From Pseudomonadales bacterium (GTDB taxonomy: Bacteria; Pseudomonadota; Gammaproteobacteria; Pseudomonadales; Azotimanducaceae), in NCBI GenBank assembly GCA_040219935.1, contig JAVJUA010000056.1:14611-78610 (forward strand): a DNA stretch of 64,000 nt, in the 5' to 3' direction. Shown one piece after another: positions 13,569 to 30,770 of this stretch (positions within the stretch are counted from its first letter, which is position 1; every line of letters begins with the position of its first letter). Position numbers and translations under genes: made by a program. Under the pieces are notes generated by a model. That model did not search any database and was not told where the DNA came from. It worked only from the letters and a program-made list of their open reading frames with translations.

Positions 13569-13574
13569 GCGCCC

Positions 13575-14762: not shown

Positions 14763-15904
14763 GACGGCGGCGTGCCCGCGGCGGCGGCGTGGGCTTCCAC
14801 CTGCCGCCAGACCCGCATCAGGTTGGCACCGAGGATCTTGCCGATGTCGCCCTCGTCGTAGCCGCGGCGCAGCAGTCCGGCCACCAGGTTCGGGTAGCTG
14901 CTGACGTCCTTCAGGCCATCGGGCAGGGTGTTGCCGACGCCGTCGTAGTCGGAGCCGATGCCGACGTGGTCGACGCCGGCCAGCATCACGGCCCGGTCGA
15001 TGTGGTCGAGCACGTCATCCAGGGTGGCGAAAGGATACGGCCCGTCGCCGTTCTCGTCCCGGTAGCGATTGGCCGCTTCGGTGAGGAAGGCGGAGCCGTA
15101 GTTGATGTGAACGATGCCGCCCTGCCGGCCCAGCGCGCGCACCATGTCGTCGCTCATGTTGCGATGAAACCCCGGGGTGAAGTGGCGCAGCGACGAATGG
15201 GTGGCGATCACGGGCACCGGCGACAGCTCGAGCACCTGCCAGAAGGCGCGGTCGCTGATGTGGGAGACGTCCACCATGACGCCGGCGTCGGCCATGGCCG
15301 GAACCAAGCGCTGCCCGAACTCGGACAGCCCCTGCCAGCGCTCGTCCTCGTCGTAGGACGAGTCGGAAATGTGGTTGGAGCGGGAGTGGGTCAGGGTCAC
15401 GTAGCGGATGCCGCGGTCGCGGAAATGGTTCAGCCGCTCGAGCTCGCCGGCGATGGGGCCGCCGTTCTCCATGCCCATGGGCAGCGCGATCAGGCCCCGG
15501 GCTTTGGCGACGTCGACGTCGTCGGCGCAGGTGGCCACAGCGAACTTGTCCGGGTGTGCGCGGGCCAGGTCTTCCACGCCGTCGATGAGCCGTTCGGCGA
15601 AGGCGCCGGCCTGGCCGGCCTGGTCGACGTCGGCGGGAATGTAGATCGACATGAACAGGGCATCCAGGCCGCCGGCCACCGCCCGCGGATGGTCGAAGTC
15701 GCCGCCGGCGGTTGCCTGGCTGACGTCGTCGTCGCTGCGGCTGAGACGATAGGGCACGTCGATGTGGGTGTCGACGATCAGCAGCCGCTGCGCCAGATCT
15801 CGCGCCCGGCTGGCATCGTCCGGCCGGGAGGCGCAGGCGCCGAGCAGCAGCAGGTTAGCGCAGGCGGCGGCGAGCAGGCATGTGGGTACGGACGGCACGG
15901 GCAT
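14750..15904 (-). CDS. Membrane dipeptidase (peptidase M19), lipoprotein
   Basis: 384-aa ORF with lipobox LLLGAC and M19-type motifs (VDTHIDVPYRL, YVTLTHSRSN, IATHSS). It overlaps the downstream gene by 13 nt. Confidence 0.88.
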   Translation of the reverse strand: MPVPSVPTCLLAAACANLLLLGACASRPDDASRARDLAQRLLIVDTHIDVPYRLSRSDDDVSQATAGGDFDHPRAVAGGLDALFMSIYIPADVDQAGQAGAFAERLIDGVEDLARAHPDKFAVATCADDVDVAKARGLIALPMGMENGGPIAGELERLNHFRDRGIRYVTLTHSRSNHISDSSYDEDERWQGLSEFGQRLVPAMADAGVMVDVSHISDRAFWQVLELSPVPVIATHSSLRHFTPGFHRNMSDDMVRALGRQGGIVHINYGSAFLTEAANRYRDENGDGPYPFATLDDVLDHIDRAVMLAGVDHVGIGSDYDGVGNTLPDGLKDVSSYPNLVAGLLRRGYDEGDIGKILGANLMRVWRQVEAHAAAAGTPPSCRL

Positions 15905-15969
15905 CTCCGGACGGCGTGGCGCGACCGATGTTCACACGGCCCCGTGGCGCAGACAAGAAGGCGCCCCAG

Positions 15970-17523
15970 CTAGTCGCGGGCGCAGTGCACGGCGTTGCGG
16001 CCCGCCCGCTTGGCCTCGTACAGGGCGCGGTCGGCCCGCTGCAGCAAGGCGGCTGCAGACGGTGTCGACGGGCTCACCGTGGCCACGCCGATGCTGGTGG
16101 TGAGGCCGACGCTGGCCGCGGCAACCGTGCTGATGGTGGTGTCTGCGATCAGCACCCGCAGTCGTTCCGCCAGGCGCAGCGCGCCGTCGACGCTGGTCTC
16201 CGGCAGCAGCAGGGCGAATTCCTCGCCGCCGAGGCGGGCGGCCACGTCGCTGTCGCGCTTGCTGGCCTCGATCACGCGTGCGATCTGCTCCAGCATCCGG
16301 TCGCCGGCGTCGTGACCGTGGGTGTCGTTGATCTCCTTGAAGTGGTCGAGGTCGAGCAGCAGCACGCTGAGCGCGTGCCCGTGGCGCTTCACGCGCTCGC
16401 TCTCCTCGTTCATGCGTCGCAGGAAGTAGCGGCGGTTGTGCAGGCCAGTGAGGGCGTCGGTGTGAGCCAGGCGCTCCATCTCCTGCTTGACCTGGCGCAG
16501 CGCACCTTCCGCCTCCAGGCGTTCGGTGATGTCTCGCAGCACCAGCACGGTCTGGCCCGCACCTGGCGCCTCCGGTTCCAGGCGGGTGCCCCTGACGTGA
16601 TAGGTGCGTTCGCCGATGGCCAGCTCGACGCTGTCGGCTTCACCCGTGAGCAAGCCGCGGAGCGGGCCCTCGCGCAGCGCACGCCCGGACCGGCTACCTG
16701 TCGCCCAGGTCGGATCGGTGCTCAGCAGCTTGCGCGCGGCGGGGTTGAGATCGACCAGGTGCCCGTCGTCGTCGACGATGATCACGCCGTCCGCCAGCTG
16801 CTCGACCACCTGGCGATGCAGAACGGGCGAGAGCTGCAGCAGCCCGCTGCGCAGGACGTTGCGGGCGATGACGATCATGCCGAGTGCGAAGCCGAGCGGT
16901 GTGGGGTCGATGTACGGAAACGGGTTCCAGCGGGTCAGGTGCAGCAGGTTGAGGGCCACGACGATGGCGGGGGCGACGATCACTGCCACCAGCGCACGCC
17001 GGTGCTGGGGCGATGCCGACAGCTCGAAGGCCAGGATCAGGGTCGCGGCCGCCACCAGCAGGTAGGCGTAGCCGGCGCTCACGGTGAACCAGGGTCCATA
17101 GTCGATGGCCAGGGCGACGAAGCCGGGCAGGGCGTTGAGGCGCACGTCGGCCCACAGCAGGCCGTGCCAGTCGTTGGTCCAGGCCAGCGACACCGTGATC
17201 GCAGGTACGATGCACAACAGCGTCAGGGTCAGGGGCCGCAACCGCTGGCGACGGCGGATGTAGGTGATGGCGAACGCCATCCATGCGACCGGCAGCAGGG
17301 CGATGCCCGGATACTGGAGCTTCGAGGCCAACATCTTCACCGCCAGGCTTGTGCTGAGGGTGCCAACAAGCTGGCCGGCCGACCAGATCAGCACGCACCA
17401 GGCGACAGCACCCAGGGCGGCGCTGCCCGGCACGCGGCTCACCCGCTCGGGCAGCCGCAGCGCGTACAGGCTGATCAGGATCGCGGCCAGCGACGGCAGC
17501 GACCAGAGGGTGAGTTGGAGCAT
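15970..17523 (-). CDS. Diguanylate cyclase with N-terminal 7TM sensor domain and PAS domain
   Basis: 517-aa ORF. The first ~230 aa are multi-TM and resemble the histidine-kinase N-terminal 7TM domain. These are followed by a PAS-like segment and a GGDEF domain with an intact GGEEF site (ARLGGEEFALLL). Confidence 0.9.
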   Translation of the reverse strand: MLQLTLWSLPSLAAILISLYALRLPERVSRVPGSAALGAVAWCVLIWSAGQLVGTLSTSLAVKMLASKLQYPGIALLPVAWMAFAITYIRRRQRLRPLTLTLLCIVPAITVSLAWTNDWHGLLWADVRLNALPGFVALAIDYGPWFTVSAGYAYLLVAAATLILAFELSASPQHRRALVAVIVAPAIVVALNLLHLTRWNPFPYIDPTPLGFALGMIVIARNVLRSGLLQLSPVLHRQVVEQLADGVIIVDDDGHLVDLNPAARKLLSTDPTWATGSRSGRALREGPLRGLLTGEADSVELAIGERTYHVRGTRLEPEAPGAGQTVLVLRDITERLEAEGALRQVKQEMERLAHTDALTGLHNRRYFLRRMNEESERVKRHGHALSVLLLDLDHFKEINDTHGHDAGDRMLEQIARVIEASKRDSDVAARLGGEEFALLLPETSVDGALRLAERLRVLIADTTISTVAAASVGLTTSIGVATVSPSTPSAAALLQRADRALYEAKRAGRNAVHCARD

Positions 17524-17615
17524 GCCAGGGCGTCCGTGTTCTGCATGTCTCGGCGGTACCGGGTCCGGGAGAATCCGTCATCCATGCCGGTTTCACAATC
17601 GGTGCTCTCCCGGAC

Positions 17616-17631
17616 TGTGACCCCGGTCACC
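17616..17631. promoter_or_regulatory. CRP/FNR-family-like dyad TGTGA-N6-TCACc
   Basis: TGTGACCCCGGTCACC lies in the divergent gap between the GGDEF gene and the fumarase gene. It matches TGTGA-N6-TCACA at 9/10 positions. TAGAAT at 17644..17649 follows. Confidence 0.25.
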
Positions 17632-17682
17632 TCGCGGCTGCGGTAGAATCTGCGGCTTCAGCCAATGGTCGAATCGGTGCCC

Positions 17683-19203
17683 ATGACAGTCATCAAGCAG
17701 GAAGACGTGATTCAGAGCGTGGCCGACGCGCTGCAGTTCATCAGCTACTACCACCCCGTGGACTTCATTCGCGCCATGCGCGAGGCCTGGGAGAAGGAGG
17801 AGTCGCCGGCAGCCAAGGCGGCGCTGACCCAGGTGCTGGTCAACTCGCGCATGTGCGCGCTCGGCAAGCGCCCCATCTGTCAGGACACCGGCATCGTCAT
17901 CGCCTTCGTCGAGGTGGGCATGAACGTGCGCTGGGAAGCCGACATGAGCCTCAACGACATGATCAACGAAGGCGTGCGCCGGGCCTACGGCCATCCGGAC
18001 AACGTGCTGCGGGCCAGCGTGCTCGCCGACCCGGACGGCGGCCGCGCAAACACCAAGGACAACACGCCCGCGGTAATCCACTACAAGGTGGTGCCCGGCG
18101 ACACCGTCAGCTTCGAGGTGGCGGCCAAGGGTGGCGGCAGCGAGGCCAAGGCCAAGTTCGCCATGCTGAACCCGTCCGACTCCGTGGCCGACTGGGTGGT
18201 GTCGGTGGTGCCGCAGATGGGCGCCGGCTGGTGCCCGCCTGGCATGCTCGGGGTGGGCATTGGCGGCACGCCGGAGAAGGCCATGCTGCTGGCGAAGGAG
18301 GCCATGATGGGCCCCATCGACATTCACGAGCTGCAGGCGCGGGGGGCGAGCAATCGGGCCGAGGCGCTGCGCCTCGAGCTGTTCGATCGGGTCAACGCGC
18401 TGGGCATCGGCGCCCAGGGTCTCGGCGGCCTCACCACGGTGCTGGACGTGAAGGTGAAGGAATATCCCACCCACGCCGCCAACAAGCCGGTGGCCGTGAT
18501 TCCCAACTGCTCGGCCACGCGCCACGTGCACTTCACCCTCGACGGCTCCGGCCCGGCCGAGTTCGAGGCGCCGGACCTGTCGGAGTGGCCCGACATCGAC
18601 TTCGAGCTCGGCGACGACGTGCGCCGGGTCAACCTCGACACGCTCACGCCGGAGGAAGTGCGCACCTGGAAGGCGGGCGAGACGCTGCTGCTCTCCGGCA
18701 AGCTGCTCACCGGCCGCGACGCCGCCCACAAGAAGCTGGTGGACCTGATCGAGCGCGGCGAGCCCCTGCCCGTGGACTTCACCAACCGGGTGATCTACTA
18801 CGTCGGCCCGGTGGATCCGGTGCGCGACGAGGTGGTGGGGCCCGCCGGGCCGACCACGGCCACGCGCATGGACAAGTTCACCCGCACGATGCTGGAAAAG
18901 ACGGGCCTGATCGGCATGGTGGGCAAGGCCGAGCGCGGCGACGGCGCCATCGAGGCGATTCGCGACAATCAGGCGGTGTACATGATCGCCGTGGGCGGCG
19001 CCGCCTATCTGGTGGCCAAGGCCATCACCAAGTCGACGCTGCTGGCGTTCCCCGAGATCGGCATGGAAGCCATCTACGAGTTCGAAGTGAGGGATATGCC
19101 GGTGACCCTGGCGGTGGACGCCGCGGGAGAGTCGGTGCACAAGCAGGGCCCGAAGATCTGGTCGGCGAAGATCGCCGAGCGCATCCGCGCCGTGGAGGCG
19201 TAA
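17683..19203 (+). CDS. fumA: Class I (Fe-S) fumarate hydratase, fused alpha/beta type
   Basis: ORF 17665..19203. The N-terminus MTVIKQEDVIQSVADALQFISYYHPVDFIRAM...ICQDTGIV matches the class I fumarase N-terminus I recall from Pseudomonas, so the start is set at ATG 17683. Confidence 0.9.
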   Translation: MTVIKQEDVIQSVADALQFISYYHPVDFIRAMREAWEKEESPAAKAALTQVLVNSRMCALGKRPICQDTGIVIAFVEVGMNVRWEADMSLNDMINEGVRRAYGHPDNVLRASVLADPDGGRANTKDNTPAVIHYKVVPGDTVSFEVAAKGGGSEAKAKFAMLNPSDSVADWVVSVVPQMGAGWCPPGMLGVGIGGTPEKAMLLAKEAMMGPIDIHELQARGASNRAEALRLELFDRVNALGIGAQGLGGLTTVLDVKVKEYPTHAANKPVAVIPNCSATRHVHFTLDGSGPAEFEAPDLSEWPDIDFELGDDVRRVNLDTLTPEEVRTWKAGETLLLSGKLLTGRDAAHKKLVDLIERGEPLPVDFTNRVIYYVGPVDPVRDEVVGPAGPTTATRMDKFTRTMLEKTGLIGMVGKAERGDGAIEAIRDNQAVYMIAVGGAAYLVAKAITKSTLLAFPEIGMEAIYEFEVRDMPVTLAVDAAGESVHKQGPKIWSAKIAERIRAVEA

Positions 19204-19212
19204 GGAGGCTTG

Positions 19213-19722
19213 ATGACTCTTGGTCGCATGACCCGGCGCCGGGCGCTGGCGCTCACGGGCGGCGCCGCGGCCGCCGCGGCGCTGATGCCCGGGCGGCTGC
19301 TGGCGAAGACGGTGGATGCCGGCCTGGCAGAATCCGACCTCATCTACCTCACGCCGCTCAAGGCCGGGGGCACGGAGAGTGCCTGTCAGGCCGAGGTGTG
19401 GTTCGTGGCCGAAGGGCGCGATGCCTGGGTGGTCACCGCCCAGGACTCGTGGCGGGCCCGGGCGCTGGCCCGAGGCTACGACCGGGCCCGGGTCTGGGTC
19501 GGTGACGTCGGCGTCTGGACCCGCTCCGACGGTGCCTACCGGCAGCTTCCCGTGGCGGAGGCCCGAGTCGAGCGGGTCGACGACCCCGACGTGCACACCC
19601 GGGTGCTGGCGCTGTTCGGCGCCAAGTATCCGCTGTCCTGGGTGCTGTGGGGGCCGCGCTTCCGCAACGGCCTGACGGCCCGGTCGCGGGTGATGCTGCG
19701 CTACCGGCTGACGCCGGCCTGA
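19213..19722 (+). CDS. Tat-signal hypothetical protein
   Basis: AAGGAGG at 19202 precedes ATG 19213. Twin-arginine leader MTLGRMTRRRALALTGGAAAAAAL. Family not recognised. Confidence 0.6.
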   Translation: MTLGRMTRRRALALTGGAAAAAALMPGRLLAKTVDAGLAESDLIYLTPLKAGGTESACQAEVWFVAEGRDAWVVTAQDSWRARALARGYDRARVWVGDVGVWTRSDGAYRQLPVAEARVERVDDPDVHTRVLALFGAKYPLSWVLWGPRFRNGLTARSRVMLRYRLTPA

Positions 19723-19734
19723 AGCCGGATCGAC

Positions 19735-20766
19735 TCAGCGTTCGAGAGCTTCGCAAAGCTCCAGCAACAGCGCGCGGGTGGCGTCGAAGGCCAGGCAGCC
19801 GTCGGTGATGCTCTGGCCGTAGCGCAGCGACGGCCCTATGTCCTGGCGGCCGCCCACCAGGTGGCTCTCGATCATCAGCGCGCGAATGCCGCGGTTGCCG
19901 GCCGCCCGCTGGCCGACCACGGCGCGGGCGACGTCGGGCTGGCGCTGCGGGTCCTTGCCGCTGTTGGCGTGGCTGCAGTCCACCATCAGCACCGGCGGCA
20001 GGTCGGCATCGCGCAGCAGGGCCTGGGCGGCGCCAATGGCTTCGGCATCGAAGTTCGGACGCTCGCCGCCGCGCAGCACCAGGTGGCAGTCGGGGTTGCC
20101 GCCGGTCTCGAAAATGGCGGGCGCCCCCTCCTTGGTGAGTGACGGAAACAGGTGCCGATGGCCGGCGGCGCGGATGGCGTCGATGGCCACCTGCACATTG
20201 CCGTCGGTGCGGTTCTTGATGCCCACCGGCATCGACAGGCCGGACGCCAGCTCGCGATGGATCTGGCTCTCCACGGTGCGGGCGCCGATGGCGCCCCAGC
20301 TGATCAGGTCGGTGTAGTACTGACCGAAGGTGGTGTCGAGAAACTCGGTGCCCGCCGGCACGCCGGCGGCGGCCACGTCGATCAGCAGTTGCCGCGCCAG
20401 GCGCAGGCCGCGGTTGATCTGGTAGGTGCCGTCCAGGCCCGGGTCATTGATCAGCCCCTTCCAGCCCACCACGGTGCGCGGCTTCTCGAAGTAGACGCGC
20501 ATGACGCACAACAGCCGCCCACGCACCTCGTCCGCGAGGTCAGCAAGGCGGCCGGCATAGTCCATGGCGGCAGCGGGGTCGTGCACGGAGCAGGGCCCGA
20601 CGATCACCAGCAGCCGCGGGTCGTCGCCCCAGATCACGTTGCGCACAGCGTCCCGCGAAGAATGCACCAGGGCGGCGGCTTCCGGCGTCAGCGGCAGCTC
20701 CTCCTCCAGCACGGCCGGAGAGATGAGCGGGTGGGTGCGGGTGATGCGCAGGTTGTCGGTGAGCAT
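19735..20766 (-). CDS. 3-deoxy-7-phosphoheptulonate (DAHP) synthase, class I (AroF/G/H type)
   Basis: 343-aa ORF with class I DAHP synthase motifs (LLVIVGPCSVHD, KPRT..GWKGLINDP, MVDCSHANS). Confidence 0.92.
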   Translation of the reverse strand: MLTDNLRITRTHPLISPAVLEEELPLTPEAAALVHSSRDAVRNVIWGDDPRLLVIVGPCSVHDPAAAMDYAGRLADLADEVRGRLLCVMRVYFEKPRTVVGWKGLINDPGLDGTYQINRGLRLARQLLIDVAAAGVPAGTEFLDTTFGQYYTDLISWGAIGARTVESQIHRELASGLSMPVGIKNRTDGNVQVAIDAIRAAGHRHLFPSLTKEGAPAIFETGGNPDCHLVLRGGERPNFDAEAIGAAQALLRDADLPPVLMVDCSHANSGKDPQRQPDVARAVVGQRAAGNRGIRALMIESHLVGGRQDIGPSLRYGQSITDGCLAFDATRALLLELCEALER

Positions 20767-20819
20767 GGGTGCCTGTGGCGTGTCGACGGGACGATGGCGG
20801 TGGCGTAGTTTACCCGACC

Positions 20820-21680
20820 ATGACCGAGCAGACCGAATCGCTGACGCCCGAAGAGCGCTTCTGGCGCGACCCGCCGTGGCGCGGCGGCCGCACGCAGTTC
20901 CGCCTCGGCCTGAGCCAGATCGCCGAGGACGAGTGGCTCGATGCCCCCATCGACGAGGGGGAGCGGGCGCGCAAGCGGCGCCTGCTGGAGACGCGCCGCG
21001 ACGCCGTGGTGCGCCGGGTGCCTGGCTTCGAGGCCCTGGAGGCGGCCGCCGCCGGTTTCGTTGCCGGCGTGCTGCGCGGTCGTGGCGTCCCGGCGCCGGA
21101 AGCGCCGGCCACGCTGGAAGCGCTGGCGCTCACCGTGCCGGACGACCTGTGCCTGCTGGCACCGTCGGCCGAGGGCCACCGGCTGGTGGCCGCCTGCCTG
21201 TGCGCGCCGTCCTACTGGCGACTGGGGGAGAAGATCGGCAAGACCATGCCCGGCGTGCACGGGCCGGTGCCCGGGCTGAACGACGCGGTGGGCGACATGC
21301 TGCAGCGGTTCTTCGACAACCTGCCGGCGGGGCGGGTGTTCCGGCGGCGCAACTTCCTGATTCATCAGAGTGACGAGCCGTTCCACCCCGAGGACGAGCG
21401 CTGGGAGCTGCCGGTGACGCCGGCGCGCTGCCCGTCGCTGTTCGTGCGCTCCGAGACCCAGACGCTGCGGCGCGTGCCGGACGACGGCGTGCTGTTCACC
21501 ATACGCGTGCAGAGCCTGGCCCTGGGGGGCATCGCCCGCCACCCGCAGGCGGCCGCCGACCTGCTGGCGGCCATGGACCGTATGTCCGACAACGAGCGCC
21601 GCGCCTTCGGAGCCGCCCATCACGGCGTCGCTTTGCGGCAATATCTCACCTCCATCATTAACGCCGACGCCGACTCGTGA
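20820..21680 (+). CDS. DUF3445-family protein (heme-dependent oxidative N-demethylase-like)
   Basis: ATG 20820 within ORF 20769..21680. Recognition rests on motifs LCLLAP...CLCAPSYW and RRNFLIH...R.E.QTLRR. The stop overlaps the next start (GTGA). Confidence 0.7.
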   Translation: MTEQTESLTPEERFWRDPPWRGGRTQFRLGLSQIAEDEWLDAPIDEGERARKRRLLETRRDAVVRRVPGFEALEAAAAGFVAGVLRGRGVPAPEAPATLEALALTVPDDLCLLAPSAEGHRLVAACLCAPSYWRLGEKIGKTMPGVHGPVPGLNDAVGDMLQRFFDNLPAGRVFRRRNFLIHQSDEPFHPEDERWELPVTPARCPSLFVRSETQTLRRVPDDGVLFTIRVQSLALGGIARHPQAAADLLAAMDRMSDNERRAFGAAHHGVALRQYLTSIINADADS

Positions 21681-24600
21681 CGTTTCAGAAACTGCTCGCC
21701 GCCCTGACCGGGTGGCTGCTGGCCGCCATGCTGCTGCCCGCCGTGGCCGCCGAAGCCACTGCCGACCCGGACGCCGACCTGCCCCTGCAGCCGGCGCGCA
21801 CCGTATCGTTCGAGACCGACCGCGCCACCTGGTTGTCCCTCGACCTCTCGCCAGACGGCGAGACCCTGGTGATCGAGGTGCTGGGCGATCTCCACCTGCT
21901 GCCGGCCGACGGTGGCCAGGCCAGGCCCCTGACCCGGGGCATGGCGTTCGACAGCCAGCCGGCATTCTCGCCAGATGGCCGCCACATCGCCTTCGTGAGC
22001 GACCGCGACGGCGCGGAGAACGTGTGGATCATCGGCGCCGACGGCAACGACGCCCGGCGGCTCACCAGCAACAGCGCCCAGGACGAGTTTGCTTCGCCCG
22101 CATGGGCCCCGGACGGCAGCCATGTGGTGGTCTCCCGCACCAACTGGGGCCTGCGCACGTTCGAGGTGTGGGCCTACCACCTGGAAGGCGGGCAGGGCGT
22201 GCAGCTCACCAAGGCCAAGAGCAACGGCGACACGCCCGCCAACCAGCGCAGCAACAGCCTCGGCGCCGTCTACTCACCGGATGGGCGCTATCTCTACTAC
22301 GCCCGCAAGAACGGCGGCTTCGGCTACAACCTGCGGCTGCCGCTGTGGCAGATCGTGCGCCATGACCTGCGCAGCGGCGAGGAGGACACCATCACCCAGG
22401 CCCGGGGCAGCGCCATCCGCCCGCGGCTGTCGCCGGACGGCGGGCGCCTGGTGTTCGGAACCCGCCACGAGCAGCAGACGGGGCTGCGCATTCGCGATCT
22501 GAGCACCGGGTCGGAACGCTGGCTGGTGCATCCGGTGACCCGCGACGAGCAGGAGTCGCGGTTCACCCGCGACCTGCTGCCGGGTTACGCCTTCTCCCCC
22601 GACGGCGCGGCTCTGCTGCTGGCGCGTGACGGGCGCATCGAGCGCGTCGAGATCGACGGCGGCCGTGCCACCGACGTGCCGTTCCAGGTGGCCGTCGAGC
22701 AGCCGGTGGGCCCGGATCTGACCGCCCCGTACCGGCTTGGTGTGGGGCCGGTGAAGGCGCGCCTGATCCGTGATCCGGCGCTGTCGCCGGACGGTGGGCG
22801 GCTGGCGTTCTCGGCGTTCACCCGCATCTACGTGCGCGACCTCGAGAGTGGCCAGACCCGGCCGCTGTCGCCGGAGGGCGTGGCCGCGTTCCATCCGGCC
22901 TGGTCGCCCGACGGCCGCAGCCTCGCCTACGCCACCTGGGAGGCGCGGGGCGGTCACCTGTGGCGGCAGCGGGCCGACGGTCGCGGCCAGCCGCGGCGCC
23001 TCACCGAGACGGCCGGCTACTACAGCGACCCAGCCTTTGCGCCTGACGGCGCGCGGCTGGTGGCGCTGCGGGCGGCGAGCTACCAGCGCCTGTACCGGGA
23101 GTGGGATTTCGGCATGCCGGTAGGCTCCGACCTGGTCTGGCTGCCGGCCGACGGCGGCGCTGCCACCACGGTGCTGCCGAGCCGCGGTTTCACCGCGCCC
23201 CACTTCGGCCCGGAGCCCGACCGCATCTATCTCTACCAGGGCTCGGGATCAAAGGGCGGCGGGCTGATGTCGGTGCGCTTCGACGGCTCCGATCGACGCG
23301 ATCATCTGAGCGTGAAGGGGCAGGGCGCCTTCCTGGACGAGGATCCGGTGGGCGCCGACGACGTGCGCATCTCGCCGGACGGCCGCCACGCGCTGATCAC
23401 CCATGCCAACCAGCTCTACGTCGCGGCGCTGCTCAATCCGCATCTGCAGGGTCTGGCCATCGCCCTGGAGAAGCCGTCGGTGCCGGTGGCGCGGCTCACC
23501 GACGTCGGCGCCGACTTTGCCGGCTGGGACGGGGCGGATGGCGTGTTCTGGTCCACCGGGCACGTCGTCTACCGGCGGCCCGTCGCCAGCGTCCGCTTCC
23601 GCGACGGCGAGCCGCAGGACGACAAGGCAGCCGACGCGGATGGCGACGGTGCGGAAGCTGGCGAGGACGCCGACGAGCCGCTGCGCGAGGCCCACGAGGC
23701 GGTGCGCGAGACGCTGGTCGAGATCTACCGGCCGCGGGCGGTGCCCGAGGGTGTGATCGCGCTGGAGGGGGCGACGGTGCTGCCCATGACCGACCAGCAG
23801 ACCGTCATCCGCGACGCCGTGGTGGTGATCGAGAACGACCGCATCACCGCCGTAGGCCCGCGGGGCGAGGTGACCGTGCCGGCCGGTGCCGAGCGCCTAG
23901 ATGTGACCGGCAAGTTCGTGCTGCCCGGCTTCATCGACAGCCACGCCCACTTCCGGCCGCTGCGCCGGCTGCTGGACACCGAGAACTGGGCCTTTCTCGC
24001 CAACCTGGCCTACGGCGTGACCACCGGCCTCGACGTCCAGACCGGCACCATCGACACCCTGGCCTATCAGGACCTGATCGACGCCGGGCTGATGATCGGC
24101 CCGCGGGCGCTGTCCACGGGCCCGGGCGTCTTCAGCAATAATGCCTTCCGCTCCCAGGCCCACGCCCGCGCCGTGCTGACCCGCTATCGCGACCACTATG
24201 GGGTGCGCAACCTCAAGGCGTACCTGCCCGGCAATCGCCAGCAGCGTCAATGGGTCGTTCAGGCCGCCCACGAACTCGGCATGCTGCCCACCACCGAGGG
24301 CGGCCTCGACATGAAGCTGGGCCTCACCCATGTCATCGACGGCTTCTGGGGCCACGAGCACAACTTTCCGGTCACGCCGCTCTACCGCGACGTGGTGGAG
24401 CTGGTGGCGCGCACCGGGGTGAAGTACACGCCGTCGCTGCTGGTGAACTACGGCGGGCCGGCGGCGGAAACGTGGTACTACAGCCGCGAGAGCCCGCACC
24501 GCGATCCGAAGCTGCGCCGCTTCACGCCGGATCACATGCTGGCCGCGCGCACCCTGCGCGGCAGCTGGTTTCATGACGACGAGTACGTGTTCCGCGACTT

Positions 24601-25000
24601 CGCCGCCCAGGCGGCCAGGATAGCCCGCGCCGGCGGCCAGGTCGGCGTCGGCGCCCACGGCCAGCTGCAGGGGCTCGGCTATCACTGGGAGCTGTGGGCA
24701 CTGGCCACCGGCATGACGCCGTGGGAGGCCCTCACCGCAGCGACCCGGCACGGTGCCGAGATCATCGGCGTGGCCGACGACGTCGGCACCGTGGAGGCGG
24801 GCAAGCTGGCCGACCTGGTGGTGCTCGACGCCGACCCCCTGACCGACATCCGCCACAGCAACGCGCTGCGCTACGTCATGAAGAACGGCGAGCTGTTCGA
24901 GGCGGACACGCTGGATCGCATATGGCCGTCAGCGCGGCCGCTGCCCGACCAGTGGTGGTGGGATCTGGCGCCGCCGGTGGCTCAGGGCGGGAGTCCGTAG
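21677..25000 (+). CDS. Secreted TolB-like beta-propeller / amidohydrolase fusion protein
   Basis: 1107-aa ORF with signal peptide LLPAVAAEA. At least 9 PD40-type repeats (FSPDGRHIAF, WAPDGSHVVV, YSPDGRYLYY, LSPDGGRLVF, WSPDGRSLAY...). An acidic linker follows, then an amidohydrolase domain (GFIDSHAHF ... ADLVVLDADPL). Confidence 0.88.
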   Translation: MTFQKLLAALTGWLLAAMLLPAVAAEATADPDADLPLQPARTVSFETDRATWLSLDLSPDGETLVIEVLGDLHLLPADGGQARPLTRGMAFDSQPAFSPDGRHIAFVSDRDGAENVWIIGADGNDARRLTSNSAQDEFASPAWAPDGSHVVVSRTNWGLRTFEVWAYHLEGGQGVQLTKAKSNGDTPANQRSNSLGAVYSPDGRYLYYARKNGGFGYNLRLPLWQIVRHDLRSGEEDTITQARGSAIRPRLSPDGGRLVFGTRHEQQTGLRIRDLSTGSERWLVHPVTRDEQESRFTRDLLPGYAFSPDGAALLLARDGRIERVEIDGGRATDVPFQVAVEQPVGPDLTAPYRLGVGPVKARLIRDPALSPDGGRLAFSAFTRIYVRDLESGQTRPLSPEGVAAFHPAWSPDGRSLAYATWEARGGHLWRQRADGRGQPRRLTETAGYYSDPAFAPDGARLVALRAASYQRLYREWDFGMPVGSDLVWLPADGGAATTVLPSRGFTAPHFGPEPDRIYLYQGSGSKGGGLMSVRFDGSDRRDHLSVKGQGAFLDEDPVGADDVRISPDGRHALITHANQLYVAALLNPHLQGLAIALEKPSVPVARLTDVGADFAGWDGADGVFWSTGHVVYRRPVASVRFRDGEPQDDKAADADGDGAEAGEDADEPLREAHEAVRETLVEIYRPRAVPEGVIALEGATVLPMTDQQTVIRDAVVVIENDRITAVGPRGEVTVPAGAERLDVTGKFVLPGFIDSHAHFRPLRRLLDTENWAFLANLAYGVTTGLDVQTGTIDTLAYQDLIDAGLMIGPRALSTGPGVFSNNAFRSQAHARAVLTRYRDHYGVRNLKAYLPGNRQQRQWVVQAAHELGMLPTTEGGLDMKLGLTHVIDGFWGHEHNFPVTPLYRDVVELVARTGVKYTPSLLVNYGGPAAETWYYSRESPHRDPKLRRFTPDHMLAARTLRGSWFHDDEYVFRDFAAQAARIARAGGQVGVGAHGQLQGLGYHWELWALATGMTPWEALTAATRHGAEIIGVADDVGTVEAGKLADLVVLDADPLTDIRHSNALRYVMKNGELFEADTLDRIWPSARPLPDQWWWDLAPPVAQGGSP

Positions 25001-25039
25001 ACTCGGGGCAGATTCTTGGGGCGTTGAACGGGGGCGCCT

Positions 25040-25129
25040 GCCGGACAGGCCATTTCGCGCAGCGGCCGTCATTGTCGTCGGGCTCTGAGATGAGATGCGT
25101 GGCTTAACGCGCGAAAAGGCCTGTCCGGC
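25040..25129. repeat. Long-stem hairpin / inverted repeat H1 (21-nt arms, 48-nt loop)
   Basis: gccggacaggccatttcgcgc (25040-25060) pairs with gcgcgaaaaggcctgtccggc (25109-25129) at 20/21 positions. It begins 40 nt after the amidohydrolase stop. Confidence 0.7.
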
Positions 25130-25266
25130 CACGGCCCCACACCACCCCACAATCTGCTTATCACGTTGAAGAACGCAGCTTCCGGCGCCTTTGCGCACGA
25201 TCACGCGATTCGGCTCTGCACTTTCATTCAGCTCGCAGCGCCAACCCGTAATCCAGGACGAGAGCA

Positions 25267-25284
25267 GGGGGTTGGGGGGGCGGG
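25267..25284 (+). other. Compact G-quadruplex-forming motif (G5-TT-G7-C-G3)
   Basis: gggggttgggggggcggg gives four G3+ tracts with loops of 1-2 nt on the + strand. Confidence 0.5.
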
Positions 25285-25290
25285 CGTGTG

Positions 25291-25379
25291 CCGGGGAACA
25301 CCTGCTGGCCTGTTCAGGCCCCGCAGTACTCCGCCGCCGCTAAAGCGCTGACGCCCGCTGGCCAGCAGGTGTTACCCGG
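25291..25379. repeat. Long-stem hairpin / inverted repeat H2 (20-nt arms, 49-nt loop)
   Basis: ccggggaacacctgctggcc (25291-25310) pairs with ggccagcaggtgttacccgg (25360-25379) at 19/20 positions. Confidence 0.7.
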
Positions 25380-25381
25380 CG

Positions 25382-25463
25382 CGCGATCCGCCGGCCATGA
25401 CCGTGATCTCGATCCGAAACTCCGCGATCCGCCGGCCATGACCGTGATCTCGATCCGAATCCC
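25382..25463. repeat. Tandem direct duplication, 2 x 41 bp (39/41 identical; the first 37 nt are perfect)
   Basis: cgcgatccgccggccatgaccgtgatctcgatccgaa occurs at 25382-25418 and again at 25423-25459. Each copy has three GATC sites. Confidence 0.9.
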
Positions 25464-25468
25464 TGCTC

Positions 25469-25633
25469 TCAGGCCGCCGGAATCAGGTACAGGTTCTCGC
25501 AGTCGGGATCATTCGCCACCGCGTCGTTCACGGGCTCGTACTGCTCGAACAGGGCGGTAGCGTCGTGGATCAGATCGTTGGCGAGGACCTCGGTGATCAG
25601 GGTGTCGGCAGCGGCTTCGTAGAGGGTGTTCAT
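25469..25633 (-). CDS. Unannotated 54-aa acidic micro-protein (no Lys/Arg), function unknown
   Basis: Below the 60-aa cutoff of the ORF track. AAGGAA-N7-ATG at 25633, with an in-frame stop 14 codons upstream. Sequence: MNTLYEAAADTLITEVLANDLIHDATALFEQYEPVNDAVANDPDCENLYLIPAA. 46/53 codons end in G/C, as in the surrounding genes. Confidence 0.55.
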   Translation of the reverse strand: MNTLYEAAADTLITEVLANDLIHDATALFEQYEPVNDAVANDPDCENLYLIPAA

Positions 25634-25682
25634 GGGCGCGTTCCTTGGGGGTGGGCCCCGGCGATGGGTTCGTCATCGACGA

Positions 25683-25698
25683 TGCAACGCGCGTGCCA
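25683..25698 (-). promoter_or_regulatory. Sigma-54 (RpoN) -24/-12 promoter
   Basis: The minus strand reads cCTGGCACGCGCGTTGCAtc, an exact fit to TGGCAC-N5-TTGCA. The predicted start lies ~40 nt upstream of the micro-ORF ATG. Confidence 0.6.
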
Positions 25699-25771
25699 GG
25701 CGGCGGAAGGCCCGTAAATCCACGGCCCGGCGCCGCTGGACGCTTCAGATCCGGGCGTGGCCGAGCGGCCG

Positions 25772-25790
25772 CCGCACCACGGCGGTGCGG
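25772..25790. promoter_or_regulatory. NtrC-family-type enhancer dyad CCGCACC-N5-GGTGCGG
   Basis: Perfect 7-nt arms with the GCACC-N5-GGTGC geometry. Centred ~84 bp upstream of the -24 GG, roughly -108 from the predicted start. Confidence 0.4.
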
Positions 25791-25794
25791 ATCT

Positions 25795-25835
25795 GGGCCT
25801 GTTCACGCTACGCCGGGCGTAGCGTGAACAGGCCC
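25795..25835 (-). terminator. Perfect 20-bp-arm palindrome overlapping the stop of the lipoprotein gene (a terminator-like hairpin with no U-tract)
   Basis: gggcctgttcacgctacgcc g ggcgtagcgtgaacaggccc. Neither strand has a following T/U run. Confidence 0.4.
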
Positions 25836-26200
25836 TAGTTGAGCACCGCGTAGCCGCGGTTGCGCAGGCAGTTGCGCACCACCACCTGCCGCTCCCGGAG
25901 CGCGTCGCCGGTGCCGCGGGCGCCGCCCACCACGGCGCCGGCGCCGGCGGAGCGCTTGGCGGTGTCGCTGTTGCCCACCGCGGCGCCGATCAGGCCGCCC
26001 ACCACGGCCCCGGCAGCGGCGCCGGTGGCGGCCCGGCCGCCCATCTCCACCTGCTCGGCGTACTCCTGACACTCCATGTGGTCAATGCGGTACTGGGCCG
26101 GATCGACGCCGCGCATGTCGACGATGGGGCCGCGGCCGCCGCGGCCCGCGCAGGCGGCCACGGAGCAGACGAGGACGAGGCAGATGAGCATGCGCAGCAT
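25835..26200 (-). CDS. Glycine-zipper outer-membrane lipoprotein
   Basis: ATG 26200 is preceded by GGGAGA. Lipobox LVCSVAAC. Gly-zipper segment GAAAGAVVGGLIGAAVG...GAGAVVGGARG. The longer ORF to 26410 has no support. Confidence 0.8.
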   Translation of the reverse strand: MLRMLICLVLVCSVAACAGRGGRGPIVDMRGVDPAQYRIDHMECQEYAEQVEMGGRAATGAAAGAVVGGLIGAAVGNSDTAKRSAGAGAVVGGARGTGDALRERQVVVRNCLRNRGYAVLN

Positions 26201-26280
26201 GGCGACGGTCTCCCGGTGAGCGTTGTCTATGAGCATAGCCGAGCAGACCACGAGCACCATGAACGGGCGCTGAACGGATC

Positions 26281-27609
26281 TCAGCCGCGTTGCACGGCCA
26301 GCCGCTCGAGGCGCGGATAGAGCGCGCCGAGCAGGGCCGTGCGCGCCACCATGAACGCCGTCATCGACAGCCACAGGCCGTGATTGCCGAATGCGTCGAG
26401 CGTCAGCCACAGGGTGGCGACGAACACCAGCAGGGCCAGAAACATGCAGTTGCGCAACTCGGCCGTACGCGTGGTGCCGATGTACACGCCGTCCAGGTGA
26501 AAGGCGCCCACCGCGGCCAGCGGCGCTACGACGACCCAGGGCAGATAGTCGCGCGCCGCGGCGCGCACGTCGGGTTGCTGGGTGAGGGCGTCGATGAACA
26601 ACCCGCCGCCCAGGGCGAAGACGATGCAGAGGGCGGCGGCGATGGCCACCGACCAGAGCAGGGTGTAGGCGGTGGCGGTGCGCAGCCGTTGCCGGTCACC
26701 GGCGCCGAAGGCGTGCCCGGCGAGGCTCTCCGCGGTGTGGGCCAGGGCATCGAGGCCATAAGCCATGACGAAGAAGAGCTGCATCAGCACCGCGTTGGCG
26801 GCGAGCACCACGTCGCCGAGGCCCGCACCGACGGCGGTGACGGTGAGGAACGGCAGCTGCACGAACAGGGTGCGGATGATGAGGTTGGCACTCACCTGAA
26901 ACAGCGCGCCCAGCCGCTGCCGGTCGAGCAGAGCGGCGCGGTCGGGCCGGCGCGCGCCGAGGCCGCGCAGCAGCCGCACCAGCAGCGTCACGCCGACGGC
27001 GGCGGCCAGCCATTCGCTCATCAGGGTAGCGGCAGCCACGCCCTCGACGCCCCAGCCGAAGCCAATCACGAAGGTCAGGTCGAGGATGACGTTGCAGACG
27101 TTGAGCAGCACGCTCACCACCAGCGCAGTACCCATGCGCTGCAGCCCGAACAGCATGCCCATCACGACGAAGTGGCAGAGCAGCGCCGGCGCGCCCCAGA
27201 CCCGTATGCCGTAGTAGTCGGCGGCGAGGGATTCCACCTGATCGCTGGCCGGGAAGAACCACAGCAGCCCCTTCAGCAGCGGTACCTGAAAAGCCACCAT
27301 GGCGATGCCCAGCAGCGCAGCGATGCCGACCGCGCGTGCGGCGATGGCAGCCAGCGCCCCCGCATCGCCGGCGCCGAAGGCCTGGGCCGAGAGCCCGGTG
27401 GTGCCCATGCGCAGGAAGCCGAACAGCCAGTACACGGCGTTGAACACCGCCGCCCCCACCGCCACCGCGCCGATGTAGGCGGGGTCGGGCAGGCGGCCCA
27501 TGACGGCCGTGTCCACCAGACCCACCATGGGCACGGTGACGTTGGCGAGCACCACGGGCCAGGCCAGGGACCAGACGCGCCGGTTCCATTCCCGGCGGCT
27601 CTGGATCAC
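26281..27609 (-). CDS. MATE family efflux transporter (DinF/NorM-like)
   Basis: 3' part of ORF 26281..28002. GTG 27609 overlaps the RND stop (GTGA). The product is 442 aa with 12 predicted TM helices and a MATE-type N-terminus (SLAWPVVLANVTVPMVGLVDTAVMGRL). Confidence 0.88.
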   Translation of the reverse strand: MIQSRREWNRRVWSLAWPVVLANVTVPMVGLVDTAVMGRLPDPAYIGAVAVGAAVFNAVYWLFGFLRMGTTGLSAQAFGAGDAGALAAIAARAVGIAALLGIAMVAFQVPLLKGLLWFFPASDQVESLAADYYGIRVWGAPALLCHFVVMGMLFGLQRMGTALVVSVLLNVCNVILDLTFVIGFGWGVEGVAAATLMSEWLAAAVGVTLLVRLLRGLGARRPDRAALLDRQRLGALFQVSANLIIRTLFVQLPFLTVTAVGAGLGDVVLAANAVLMQLFFVMAYGLDALAHTAESLAGHAFGAGDRQRLRTATAYTLLWSVAIAAALCIVFALGGGLFIDALTQQPDVRAAARDYLPWVVVAPLAAVGAFHLDGVYIGTTRTAELRNCMFLALLVFVATLWLTLDAFGNHGLWLSMTAFMVARTALLGALYPRLERLAVQRG

Positions 27610-30600
27610 GTCGGTCCGGGTTGCGCCACGCCTTGCGCCACCTCGTCCCAGCCGAACAGGTCTTCGGCGATGGCGTACAGGGCGGGCACCAGGAACAGGG
27701 TGATGAAGGTGGCGAACAGCACGCCATAGGCCAACGAAACCGCCATGGGTATGACGAAGGCCGTCGCCGGCGACGCCGTAGCCATCAGCGGGACCAGGCC
27801 GACGAACGTGGTCACCGAGGTGAGCATGATCGGCCGGAATCGTATCACGCCGGCGTTCATGGTCGCTTCGTGTATGGAGACGCCTTCCCGGCGCTGGCGG
27901 TTGATGTAGTCCACCAGCACCAGGCTGGAGTTCACCACCACGCCGGACAGGGCGACGATGCCGAGCATGGAGAAGAACACCAGTAGCTGGTCCATGATCC
28001 AATGGCCGACGATGGCGCCGACCGCGCCGAACGGAATCACGCTCATGATGACCAGCGGCTGCACATAGGATCGCAGCGGCACCGCCAGCAGCGCATAGAT
28101 GATGACCAGCGCCAGCACGGCGGCATAGGCGAGGCCGGTCATGGCCTTGGTACGCTCCTCCTGCTCACCGGACAGGCCGATCTCGATGCCGCGGTACTTG
28201 TCCCGCAGCGCGGGCAGCACCTGCTGCTGGATGGCGACGTTGATCTCCTCCGGGCTGACCCGGGAGCGGTCGACGTCGCCGATGACGTTGACCACCCGGC
28301 GGCCGTCGACCCGGCGGATGCTGGCGTAGCCGCGGCCGAGCTCGAAGGCGGCCACGCTGTAGAACGGCACTTCCGAGCCGTCAGGCGTGCGGATGTACAT
28401 GTCCTCCAGATTGCCGATCGACGCGCGCTCGGTTTCCGGATACCGAACCATCACCCGCACCTCGTCCTGGCCGCGCTGCAGGCGCTGCGCCTCGATGCCA
28501 TAAAAGGCGCTTCGCACCTGCCGTGCCAGATCGTTGAGGGTGAGCCCGAGGTGGCGGGCTTCGGGCAGCAGCGACAGCTTGATCTCCTGCTTGCCGGCCC
28601 GGAAGGTGTCGGTGATGTCGAACACGCCGTCGAAGCGCGCCAGCTCCGCCTTCAGCTCGGTGGCGGCCTCGCGCATCCGGTCCACGTCCTTGCCGGTGAG
28701 CTGATAATTGATGGGCTCGCCGGCGCTGAAGGCGTCGGCGTTGAAGGTGAGCTTGACCGCGTCCGGAATGTCGCCGGTCAGCTCGCGCCAGCGCTGGGCC
28801 ACCGCCTTGGACGACAGCTTGCGGCGCTGCTCCAGCGGCAGCAGCTCGATCACCACCTCGGCATAGTGGCTGCGGCCGGCACCGTCGCCCTGGTTCGGTC
28901 CGTCGCGCTCGACGACGATGCCGATGCTGGAGAGCATGTTGACCACCACCGAGCCGCTCTCAGGCCCGATCTCGGCGTCCAGCTCCTGCTGCAGCACCCG
29001 GGCTGCCTCTTCAATGCGCTCGGCGGCACGGGCGGTGACGTCAACGGAGACACCCTCCGGCATCTCGAGCTGGGCGTGGACCCGGTCGCCTTCGACGGCC
29101 GGGAAGAAGCCGAAGACCACCCTGCCGCTGGCGATCAGGGCGACGGCCAGGATCAGCACGCCCAGACCGATGGCGGCCGTGGCGTATCGCCACTCGATGG
29201 CGCGCGCCAGGAGCGGCTGGTAGCGATGCTGCGCGAAGTGTTCGAGCCCTCCGGACAGGCGGCTCTGCAGGGTGTTCCAGCGCTTCGACAGGCCGTGGCT
29301 GGCTTCGTTGTGGTTGCGATGGGCCAGGTGCGCCGGGAGGATGAGCTGCGACTCGATGATGCTGAACACCAGGGCGATGATCACTACGTAGCCGATCACG
29401 CCGAAGAAGTCGGCCATGCGCCCCGGAACGATGATCAGCGGCAGAAACGCGGCCATGGTGGTCAGCACGCCGAAGATCACCGGGATCGACACCTCGCGCG
29501 TGCCGTCGATGGCGGCCTGCACCGGGTCCTTGCCCATCTGCTCGTGCCCGTAGACGCGCTCGCCGACGACGATGGCATCGTCGACCAGGATGCCGAGCAC
29601 CAGAATGAACGCCATCACGGTGATGGTGCTGATGGAGATGTCGGCGTAGGGAAACACCGCCAGGGTCCCCAGCAGGGCGATGGGGATGCCGGCGGCCACC
29701 CACATGGCCAGGCGGAAGCGCAGGAACAGGGCGAGGATGATGACCACCAGCACCAGGCCGGAAAGGGCCGTGTTGGTCAGGGTGTCGAGACGCTCGGTGA
29801 GCTGGCGGCTCTCGTCGGTCCAGATGGTGAGGTCGATGCCGGGGGGCAGCAGGGCCTGATAGTCGCGCACGTAGGCCTTGATGTCGCGCGCCATCTGGAT
29901 CGTGTCTTCCTTCCCGACCTGGTAGACCTTCACCACCACGGCGGGGTCGCCGTTGAAGCGGGCCCGCAGGTCGCCTTCCTCGAAGGCGTCGCGGACGCTG
30001 GCGATCTCGTTCAGCATCACCCGCGAGCCGTCGGGGCGGGTAAGCACCACGATGTCCTCGAACTCGGGGCCCCAGTACGACTGACCCTTGGTGCGCAGCA
30101 GGATCTCGCCGCCCTCGGTGCGGATGCTGCCGCCCGGCATGTCGAGCGAGGCATTGCGCACCGCGTTGGCAACCTGGTCGAGCGTCAGGCCGTAGCGGCG
30201 CAGCTCGTACTCCGGGACCTCGATGGAGATCTCGTAGGGGCGCACGTAGGCCAGCGAGACCTGCGAGACGCCCTTCAGTGCCGCGATGTCGTCGCGGACC
30301 TCCTTGCCCACCTCCTTGAGCGTGCGTTCGTCCGCCTGGCCGGAAATGGCGATCTGCACCACGCCGCGGGTGATCATGGCCTTTGAGACGATGGGCTTCT
30401 CGGTCTCCGCCGGCAGCCCCTGCACGCCGTCGACACGACTCTTGATCTCGTTCATCACCTCGTTTTCGTCGGCATCGAGCAGAAGCTCGGCGAGCACGCT
30501 GCAGGCACCCTCCACCGCGGTGGTGCGGATCTTGTCGATGCCCTCCACCCCCTCGATGGCCTCTTCGATGCGCAGGCACACGCCCTGCTCGGACTCCTCC

Positions 30601-30770
30601 GGCGCGGCGCCCAGGTAGGGCACGCTGATGCTCACCATCTGGATGTTGATGTTGGGGAACTCTTCCTGATGGACGGTGAGCAACGCCAGGCCGCCGCCCA
30701 CCAGCAGCACGCTCATCAGCAGATTGGCCGCAACCGGATTGCGGGTAAACCAGGCAATGGCTCCGTGCAT
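27606..30770 (-). CDS. RND efflux transporter permease (AcrB/AcrD/AcrF family)
   Basis: 1054-aa ORF with a typical RND N-terminus (IAWFTRNPVAANLLM) and two large periplasmic loops flanked by 12 TM helices. Confidence 0.93.
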   Translation of the reverse strand: MHGAIAWFTRNPVAANLLMSVLLVGGGLALLTVHQEEFPNINIQMVSISVPYLGAAPEESEQGVCLRIEEAIEGVEGIDKIRTTAVEGACSVLAELLLDADENEVMNEIKSRVDGVQGLPAETEKPIVSKAMITRGVVQIAISGQADERTLKEVGKEVRDDIAALKGVSQVSLAYVRPYEISIEVPEYELRRYGLTLDQVANAVRNASLDMPGGSIRTEGGEILLRTKGQSYWGPEFEDIVVLTRPDGSRVMLNEIASVRDAFEEGDLRARFNGDPAVVVKVYQVGKEDTIQMARDIKAYVRDYQALLPPGIDLTIWTDESRQLTERLDTLTNTALSGLVLVVIILALFLRFRLAMWVAAGIPIALLGTLAVFPYADISISTITVMAFILVLGILVDDAIVVGERVYGHEQMGKDPVQAAIDGTREVSIPVIFGVLTTMAAFLPLIIVPGRMADFFGVIGYVVIIALVFSIIESQLILPAHLAHRNHNEASHGLSKRWNTLQSRLSGGLEHFAQHRYQPLLARAIEWRYATAAIGLGVLILAVALIASGRVVFGFFPAVEGDRVHAQLEMPEGVSVDVTARAAERIEEAARVLQQELDAEIGPESGSVVVNMLSSIGIVVERDGPNQGDGAGRSHYAEVVIELLPLEQRRKLSSKAVAQRWRELTGDIPDAVKLTFNADAFSAGEPINYQLTGKDVDRMREAATELKAELARFDGVFDITDTFRAGKQEIKLSLLPEARHLGLTLNDLARQVRSAFYGIEAQRLQRGQDEVRVMVRYPETERASIGNLEDMYIRTPDGSEVPFYSVAAFELGRGYASIRRVDGRRVVNVIGDVDRSRVSPEEINVAIQQQVLPALRDKYRGIEIGLSGEQEERTKAMTGLAYAAVLALVIIYALLAVPLRSYVQPLVIMSVIPFGAVGAIVGHWIMDQLLVFFSMLGIVALSGVVVNSSLVLVDYINRQRREGVSIHEATMNAGVIRFRPIMLTSVTTFVGLVPLMATASPATAFVIPMAVSLAYGVLFATFITLFLVPALYAIAEDLFGWDEVAQGVAQPGPT

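Follow-up and report, generated by a model that had tools for sequence, protein, structure and literature searches.

A sigma-54 promoter element conserved upstream of a family of small acidic proteins in uncultured Gammaproteobacteria

A stretch of 64,000 nucleotides from a Pseudomonadales bacterium (hereafter, the window; contig JAVJUA010000056.1 of assembly GCA_040219935.1) carries, on its minus strand, a 54-codon gene placed behind a sigma-54 (RpoN) promoter element, with a perfect dyad further upstream. A first-pass annotation, made from the letters alone, had read this arrangement as an isolated micro-gene under an NtrC-type enhancer, and had offered a small regulator, a modified-peptide precursor and a dual-function RNA as possible products. 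The present analysis places the gene in a family of small acidic proteins that keep their sigma-54 element in every locus compared.

The gene (25469..25633, minus strand, stop included) starts with an ATG at 25633, ends with a TGA at 25471-25469 and encodes the acidic 54-residue protein MNTLYEAAADTLITEVLANDLIHDATALFEQYEPVNDAVANDPDCENLYLIPAA, which has 11 Asp/Glu, no Lys or Arg and a single Cys. A spacer of 7 nt separates the Shine-Dalgarno sequence AAGGAA (25641..25646, minus strand) from the ATG, the frame is closed by a TGA 14 codons 5′ of the start (25675-25673), and 46 of the 53 codons end in G or C. These features, all described in the first-pass annotation, are read directly in the sequence. 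The open reading frame (ORF) had also been called unannotated, which holds only for the ORF track supplied to that annotation, since contig JAVJQH010000004.1 of NCBI assembly GCA_040218135.1 has a called 54-aa gene for the identical protein.

Upstream of the gene, the string TGGCACGCGCGTTGCA at 25698-25683 of the minus strand (TGGCAC-GCGCG-TTGCA) fits the sigma-54 -24/-12 consensus at 11 of 11 positions. This consensus has GG at -24 and GC at -12 with a fixed spacing, TGGCAC-N5-TTGC(A/T) (PMC8743547). The exact fit had been noticed before, with a 17-letter string that begins at 25699 and is off by one. The element (25683..25698) is the sole exact match to TGGCAC-N5-TTGCW in the window, against 0.077 expected on both strands, and the promoter scan detected no sigma-70 promoter at the locus. 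From the usual placing of the -12 GC, with the C of TTGC at -12, transcription would start near 25672. By the same placement the leader would measure about 39 nt and the dyad would be centred at about -109, next to the -108 given earlier. The dyad itself, CCGCACC-GCCGT-GGTGCGG at 25790-25772 of the minus strand, is perfect as had been claimed, and is a candidate activator site with the NtrC-box-like core GCAC-N7-GTGC.

The small gene and its protein family

A first search returned three homologues, and an exhaustive search followed by a second profile search raised the family to at least 77 unnamed proteins of 49-82 aa, independently called as genes, for which the sources give only 'hypothetical protein'. 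Across 69 members, the median length is 56 aa, the isoelectric point is about 4, and 61 contain at most one Lys or Arg. The family has a common layout: a variable N-terminus, [AL]LFEQYEP, an acidic linker of 12-30 residues that often contains ND, and the C-terminal motif (C/Y/hydrophobic)-(E/D)-NLY-x-x-P followed by 1-3 variable residues. The two motifs, ALFEQYEP and (E/D)NLYxxP, are near-invariant across the family. The Cys to which the first-pass annotation drew attention does not define it, being present in 38 of the 69 members and replaced by Tyr, Leu, Val, Ile or other residues in 31.

All members stem from metagenomes or metagenome-assembled genomes (MAGs), and the taxa so far are uncultured Gammaproteobacteria labelled as Pseudomonadales or Pseudomonadota MAGs. 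Scans of sequence collections for the family gave no locus in the first metagenome scan, two in the second and two among genome contigs. Plasmid and phage collections searched with tblastn gave no family match, and a mobile-element or anti-defence origin is therefore unsupported. The peptide matched nothing in Pfam, NCBIfam or PADLOC, none of the 69 members matched Pfam, and no match was obtained with the PDB sequence profile. A literature search on the motif string and on sigma-54-dependent small proteins found nothing relevant.

Three apparent fusions were rejected: P0006 as a repetitive spurious match, P0096 as an ABC transporter brought in by a clustering artefact, and P0093 as a frameshifted copy. 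A resemblance to the ssrA tag (AANDENYALAA) raised the idea of a ClpX degron or an SspB mimic. This was also rejected, as the defining C-terminal LAA-COOH is absent; the family ends in P-x(1-3) with variable residues, and a PAA end occurs only in the window's clade.

For comparison between loci, we used 16 of them, namely the window and 15 retrieved family loci (L-numbered below) whose proteins are from 89% down to about 35% identical to the window copy. The Shine-Dalgarno sequence is AAGGAA or GAGGAA in L001, L002 and L014. Among the window, L001 and L002, substitutions are mostly synonymous: the ratio of nonsynonymous to synonymous rates (dN/dS) is 0.13-0.24, and third positions account for 14-17 of 21-29 differences. 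Within the codons for LFEQY(E/D)P and N-L-Y..P, the 16 loci differ from one another at third positions alone, and all these changes are synonymous bar one Glu-to-Asp in L008. Since the motif codons differ only at third positions, the constraint acts on the amino acids, not on an RNA or DNA element. Judged by its sequence, the ORF is a real gene.

The sigma-54 element and the upstream dyad

Promoters were scored by the best sigma-54 match within 300 nt upstream of each start codon. An element stands 34-181 nt 5′ of the start codon in 16/16 loci, which is also the range of leader length across the family, and it is a perfect TGGCAC-N5-TTGC(A/T) (11/11) in 13 of them. The imperfect elements read TGGCAT in L014 and L015, and TGGCAC-N5-GTGC (9/11) in L009. 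Random 300-nt stretches from the same loci reached a perfect score in less than 1% of trials, most of which overlap real sites. The 16 promoter-bearing loci span at least eight unrelated gene neighbourhoods. Because flanks and neighbouring genes are unrelated between most loci, the promoter travels with the gene. Its conservation is the strongest evidence for sigma-54 dependence that sequence can offer, and transcription of the gene in vivo would be expected to depend on sigma-54. Homologues, synteny, substitution pattern and motif scores had been named in the first-pass annotation as checks on gene and promoter, and all of them came out in favour.

The E. coli NtrC box is the 17-bp TGCACCAnnnTGGTGCA (PMC8743547; also PMC4987338 Table 1). 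The window site CGCACCGccgTGGTGCG fits 11 of its 14 specified positions, with the GCAC-N7-GTGC core perfect and T11 kept. For the dyad, 15 loci could be scored over the stretch from -60 to -125, L003 being too short. In six of these, a perfect GCAC-N7-GTGC lies 82-103 nt 5′ of TGGCAC, against a null of 0.28% per 65-nt stretch, so that the core is enriched well above chance and is not universal. The six loci belong to four lineages: the window, L001 and L002 form one clade, L014 shares its gene order with the window, and L004 and L016 (site CGCACCAttttAGTGCG) lie in unrelated contexts. Box positions A7 and T11 are both retained in L001 (CGCACCAccaTAGTGCA) and L016 (CGCACCAtttTAGTGCG).

The dyad was also considered as a terminator hairpin of the upstream lipoprotein gene. 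This was rejected, as the same GCAC/GTGC bases are found in the unrelated L004 and L016. The recurrence of identical bases in unrelated contexts, and not of arbitrary complementary stems, argues for a candidate protein-binding site in place of a generic terminator hairpin. NtrC is, from these sequence comparisons, a plausible and the best candidate for the activator in the window's lineage; it is neither established nor a family-wide rule.

The pattern GCACC-N5-GGTGC occurs three times in the window, where 0.22 copies would be expected. The further palindromes, at 2788 and 33433, read as part of long open frames, the latter in a frame that looks UvrB-like by eye. Both were taken as chance occurrences.

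Leader, 3′ flank and gene neighbourhoods

The 5′ untranslated region (UTR) of the window gene contains an AACCCA box (25665..25670, minus strand), which is found within 60 nt of the ATG in 8 of the 16 loci against a null of 0.56%. The eight loci (window, L001, L002, L014, L008, L009, L011 and L017) represent at least five lineages, and in them AACCCA(C/T) stands 21-41 nt before the start codon; its position tracks the start codon, not the promoter. Loci that lack it carry CCCCA or CCCCC. The box is predicted to be mostly single-stranded overall: in L001 and L002, which are close relatives, it falls in a hairpin loop, and the window's own fold leaves it only partly paired. It may serve as a site for a small RNA or an RNA-binding protein, and its recurrence suggests some post-transcriptional control. 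Two leaders contain repeats of their own. L009 has seven tandem 16-nt units (GGGTTTTATGTGCGAT) between promoter and gene (~5820-5935, in the 5′ UTR), and L005 has repeated GGATTGCAG units (~5845-5905) that echo the -12 element of that locus.

Just past the stop codon of the window gene, a quasi-palindromic, strongly structured 41-nt unit is present as two tandem repeats (25382..25463, minus strand). It occurs as a single copy in L002 and has no other copy in the window, and the 3′ end of the transcript probably includes the repeats. Further 3′, the RNA fold predicts a long GC-rich stem-loop (25290..25380, minus strand), a candidate terminator without a U-tract. The fold of 25290-25480 reaches -103 kcal/mol (z = -4.3), and a consensus scan found no canonical terminator. 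On the other side of the gene, a perfect hairpin (25795..25835, minus strand; 20-bp arms, 1-nt loop) separates the lipoprotein stop from the dyad and probably insulates or terminates the upstream transcript. L001, L002 and L014 lack this hairpin, and their dyad directly follows the lipoprotein stop codon. Its arm GGCCTGTTCA recurs at 25307 within the long downstream stem-loop. A permissive Rfam scan of 24900-26500 returned only sub-threshold noise of the eukaryotic miRNA type.

On the minus strand of the window, the genes run in the order RND pump (27606-30770), MatE transporter, glycine-zipper lipoprotein (25835-26200) and small gene. A gene for a 1107-aa Tricorn-like/PD40 amidohydrolase (21677-25000) converges on the small gene from the opposite strand. 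Genes for nitrogen assimilation or peptide maturation are missing within about 12 kb of the small gene, although several peptidases are encoded there. Across the 16 loci, in at least eight contexts, there is no linked activator, maturase or conserved neighbour, and the description of an isolated micro-gene is borne out by these varied neighbourhoods. Neighbours elsewhere include an aldehyde dehydrogenase, an acyltransferase and an FAA hydrolase, a polyamine-type ABC transporter, CNNM/CBS proteins, an aminotransferase, a phasin and others.

In six contexts the next gene is convergent, and the small gene is therefore monocistronic there. In L001, L002 and L014, a gene for a 336-aa Amidohydro_2 protein comes next on the same strand and may be co-transcribed with the small gene. 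The window has lost this gene; only the spacer that preceded it is kept (25005-25280, 78% identity to L002), and this spacer runs directly up to the stop of the convergent 1107-aa gene, as if about 1 kb had been cleanly deleted.

In three otherwise unrelated neighbourhoods, an RND efflux pump lies at most 6 kb from the small gene; with so few cases and no background density, this proximity may or may not be meaningful. The pumps (window 27606-30770, L004 7073-10204, L005 7041-10166, L011 1448-4549 and L014 1-2234) are different paralogues with 24-35% identity, and hence are not residual synteny. In L016, and in this single case, a phasin gene (Phasin_2, 1363-1734) lies directly downstream on the same strand. 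Phasins are associated with the storage of polyhydroxyalkanoate, and it is this storage that typically rises under nitrogen limitation. On one side of the small gene, the window holds a cluster of genes for the breakdown of peptides and amides at 12411-25000, with an M20 peptidase, an M19 dipeptidase and the 1107-aa Tricorn-like PD40/amidohydrolase. A 7TM-PAS-GGDEF diguanylate cyclase is encoded at 15970-17523.

Mode of action and alternatives

AlphaFold2, run with a 69-sequence alignment, predicts one helix (residues 2-26) followed by coil, and both invariant motifs fall in the coil part of the model. Between the window and L014, identity is only 39% for the small protein but 77% for the adjacent lipoprotein; the constraint on the small protein is therefore concentrated in its two motifs. 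Fast change outside the motifs, together with motifs placed in a part modelled as unstructured, is the usual picture for short linear motifs that become folded when they bind a partner. For this reason a small regulatory binder is the model that we prefer, and the small-regulator option of the first-pass annotation is the one that we carry forward as the probable mode of action.

The locus would then be a self-contained transcription unit of four parts, namely an enhancer site, a sigma-54 promoter, a leader with the AACCCA box and the 54-codon ORF. A phosphorylated enhancer-binding protein encoded elsewhere would bind the dyad. NtrC is the likeliest candidate for it, and as the activator it would tie the gene to nitrogen limitation. 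The product would be a very acidic protein of about 55 aa with a fast-evolving N-terminal helix and a disordered tail bearing ALFEQYEP and (E/D)NLYxxP. Through these two motifs the protein may dock onto a conserved partner in the cell whose gene lies elsewhere, and so modulate this partner during the inducing stress. Sigma-54 dependence in vivo, the activator, the inducing signal, the binding mode and the target are what we infer in this scheme. As a whole, a self-contained unit with activation of the NtrC type and a small regulatory binder as its product is the best explanation, and we consider it rather probable. That the protein is a stress-induced, protein-binding regulator, probably with nitrogen limitation as the inducer, is a view that we hold with moderate confidence.

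Several observations weigh against this explanation. The confidence of the AlphaFold2 model is moderate (predicted local distance difference test, pLDDT, 71; predicted template modelling score, pTM, 0.33), and a binding motif is only weakly supported by disorder in a model. Neither rpoN nor ntrC nor any other activator gene is present in the window, and a six-frame search of the 64 kb for the GAFTGA and Walker-A hallmarks of sigma-54 activators found none encoded; that the genome has such genes is assumed. Three positions of the E. coli NtrC box (1, 7 and 17) are not matched by the window site, which has C/G in place of T/A at the outer positions and G in place of the conserved A at position 7. 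Classic NtrC enhancers have two or more sites, whereas the 220 nt upstream in the window contain no convincing second one; the next best (8/12) falls within the upstream coding region at a non-canonical distance. Furthermore, the NtrC-like dyad is absent from nine of the 15 scorable loci (L005, L008-L013, L015 and L017). Some of these carry other upstream dyads, such as TGCGCC-N5-GGCGCA in L005 and TGCGCT-N5-AGCGCA in L015, and no common enhancer site was recognised in the loci without the NtrC-like dyad. The NtrC-type dyad of the first-pass annotation thus stands for its core in six loci, and not as a canonical enhancer or a feature of the whole family. The missing and alternative dyads, the single site, its three departures from the box and the lack of nearby nitrogen genes would all suit an activator other than NtrC, possibly a different one in each lineage, with the sigma-54 unit and the protein unchanged and a signal that is not nitrogen limitation. 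On the other hand, the GCACC-N5-GGTGC half-sites and their spacing fit the NtrC box better than any other activator site known to us (see also PMC4987338 Table 1), and L001 and L016 keep both A7 and T11. We regard a non-NtrC activator as a serious possibility that is clearly the less likely of the two.

The other alternatives concern the product. A precursor of a modified peptide or cofactor, similar to PqqA, would have its invariant Glu and Tyr and its Cys modified by enzymes encoded elsewhere. The family resembles PqqA and other small precursor peptides in length, in its acidic character, in the invariant Glu and Tyr (E-Q-Y and E/D-N-L-Y) with a frequent Cys, and in a conserved segment that is disordered or lacks stable structure. 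However, modified-peptide precursors are almost always linked to their enzymes, and the 16 loci in at least eight contexts hold no radical-SAM enzyme, cyclase, protease/exporter pair or other maturation gene and no conserved neighbour. The E-X3-Y motif of PqqA does not occur in the family, no family model is matched, the Cys is replaced in 31 of 69 members, and 1-3 variable residues follow the final Pro. A precursor is thus improbable. A sigma-54-dependent regulatory or dual-function transcript, with the RNA as the main effector and the ORF secondary, has precedents in the sigma-54-driven small RNAs GlmY, Qrr and NrsZ, and would account for the conserved single-stranded AACCCA box and the strongly structured 3′ flank with its tandem repeats. 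The conservation at the amino-acid level with synonymous wobble speaks against it, as do UTRs that vary widely in length and sequence among loci, 3′ repeats that are confined to the window's clade and Rfam matches that amount to noise; we rank it slightly below even the precursor. Both of these options of the first-pass annotation are weakened in this way, by the lack of a linked enzyme and by the constraint on amino acids. As for a chance motif beside a chance ORF in GC-rich DNA, spurious ORFs are many in GC-rich genomes and the sigma-54 pattern with one mismatch is not rare, being expected 2.1 times in the window, so that the motif alone would not be convincing. With the promoter kept in 16/16 loci, 77 homologues and purifying selection, chance is refuted by the comparative data and its probability is negligible.

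Under the preferred explanation, that of a sigma-54 unit with an NtrC-type activator and a binder as its product, the regulatory part has close parallels. The enterobacterial promoters of the glnAp2 type that depend on NtrC and sigma-54 (glnA, glnK-amtB, glnHPQ and astC, among others) share with the window TGGCAC-N5-TTGC at -24/-12 and a 17-bp GCAC-N7-GTGC dyad about 110 bp before the start, and no sigma-70 promoter was detected here. In contrast to them, one strong site is present here where they have at least two, the box takes a GC-rich form (CGCACCG...TGGTGCG), and the dyad is not kept family-wide. The target is a stand-alone 54-codon gene without a link to nitrogen metabolism, and its activator is not encoded nearby. 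A small gene with its own sigma-54 promoter is known in pspG of the PspF regulon (PMC4987338 Table 1). Like pspG, the gene described here is monocistronic and distant from its activator gene. PspG, however, is an envelope-stress membrane protein under a PspF enhancer, while the present protein is soluble, acidic and unrelated, and has another enhancer.

For the protein, the closest likeness is to stress-induced binder proteins, such as the E. coli anti-adaptors IraP, IraM and IraD, the cyanobacterial glutamine-synthetase inactivating factors IF7/IF17, and PirA. As with these, a short stand-alone gene has a dedicated stress-responsive promoter and a product without an enzymatic domain, and by analogy action through protein-protein contact would be expected. 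There is no sequence similarity to any of them, so that the analogy is one of mode and not of membership. Moreover, IF7/IF17 are basic, whereas the present family is extremely acidic.

With a regulatory architecture that is itself textbook, the locus is of interest for its protein, not for its promoter. The novelty is a family of small acidic proteins, undescribed so far and tied to sigma-54 promoters, for which a name, a family model, a structure and a literature are all lacking. Sigma-54 promoters are silent without their activator, and since one is kept in every sampled copy, the family is likely a dedicated stress effector. It is a clean candidate for small-protein discovery, and its two invariant short motifs offer direct handles on the partner. 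More speculatively, the family might form a new class of sigma-54 micro-regulators in uncultured marine and sediment Gammaproteobacteria, induced by nitrogen or nutrient stress, whose motifs capture some central piece of housekeeping machinery, for instance a protease adaptor, a nitrogen-signalling protein or an efflux component; or it might be the scaffold of a new cofactor derived from Glu and Tyr, with unlinked enzymes. We consider this a long shot, only a shade likelier than the simple precursor discussed above. If the link to NtrC is true, the nitrogen-stress response of these bacteria would gain, in this family, a regulator that acts at the protein level.

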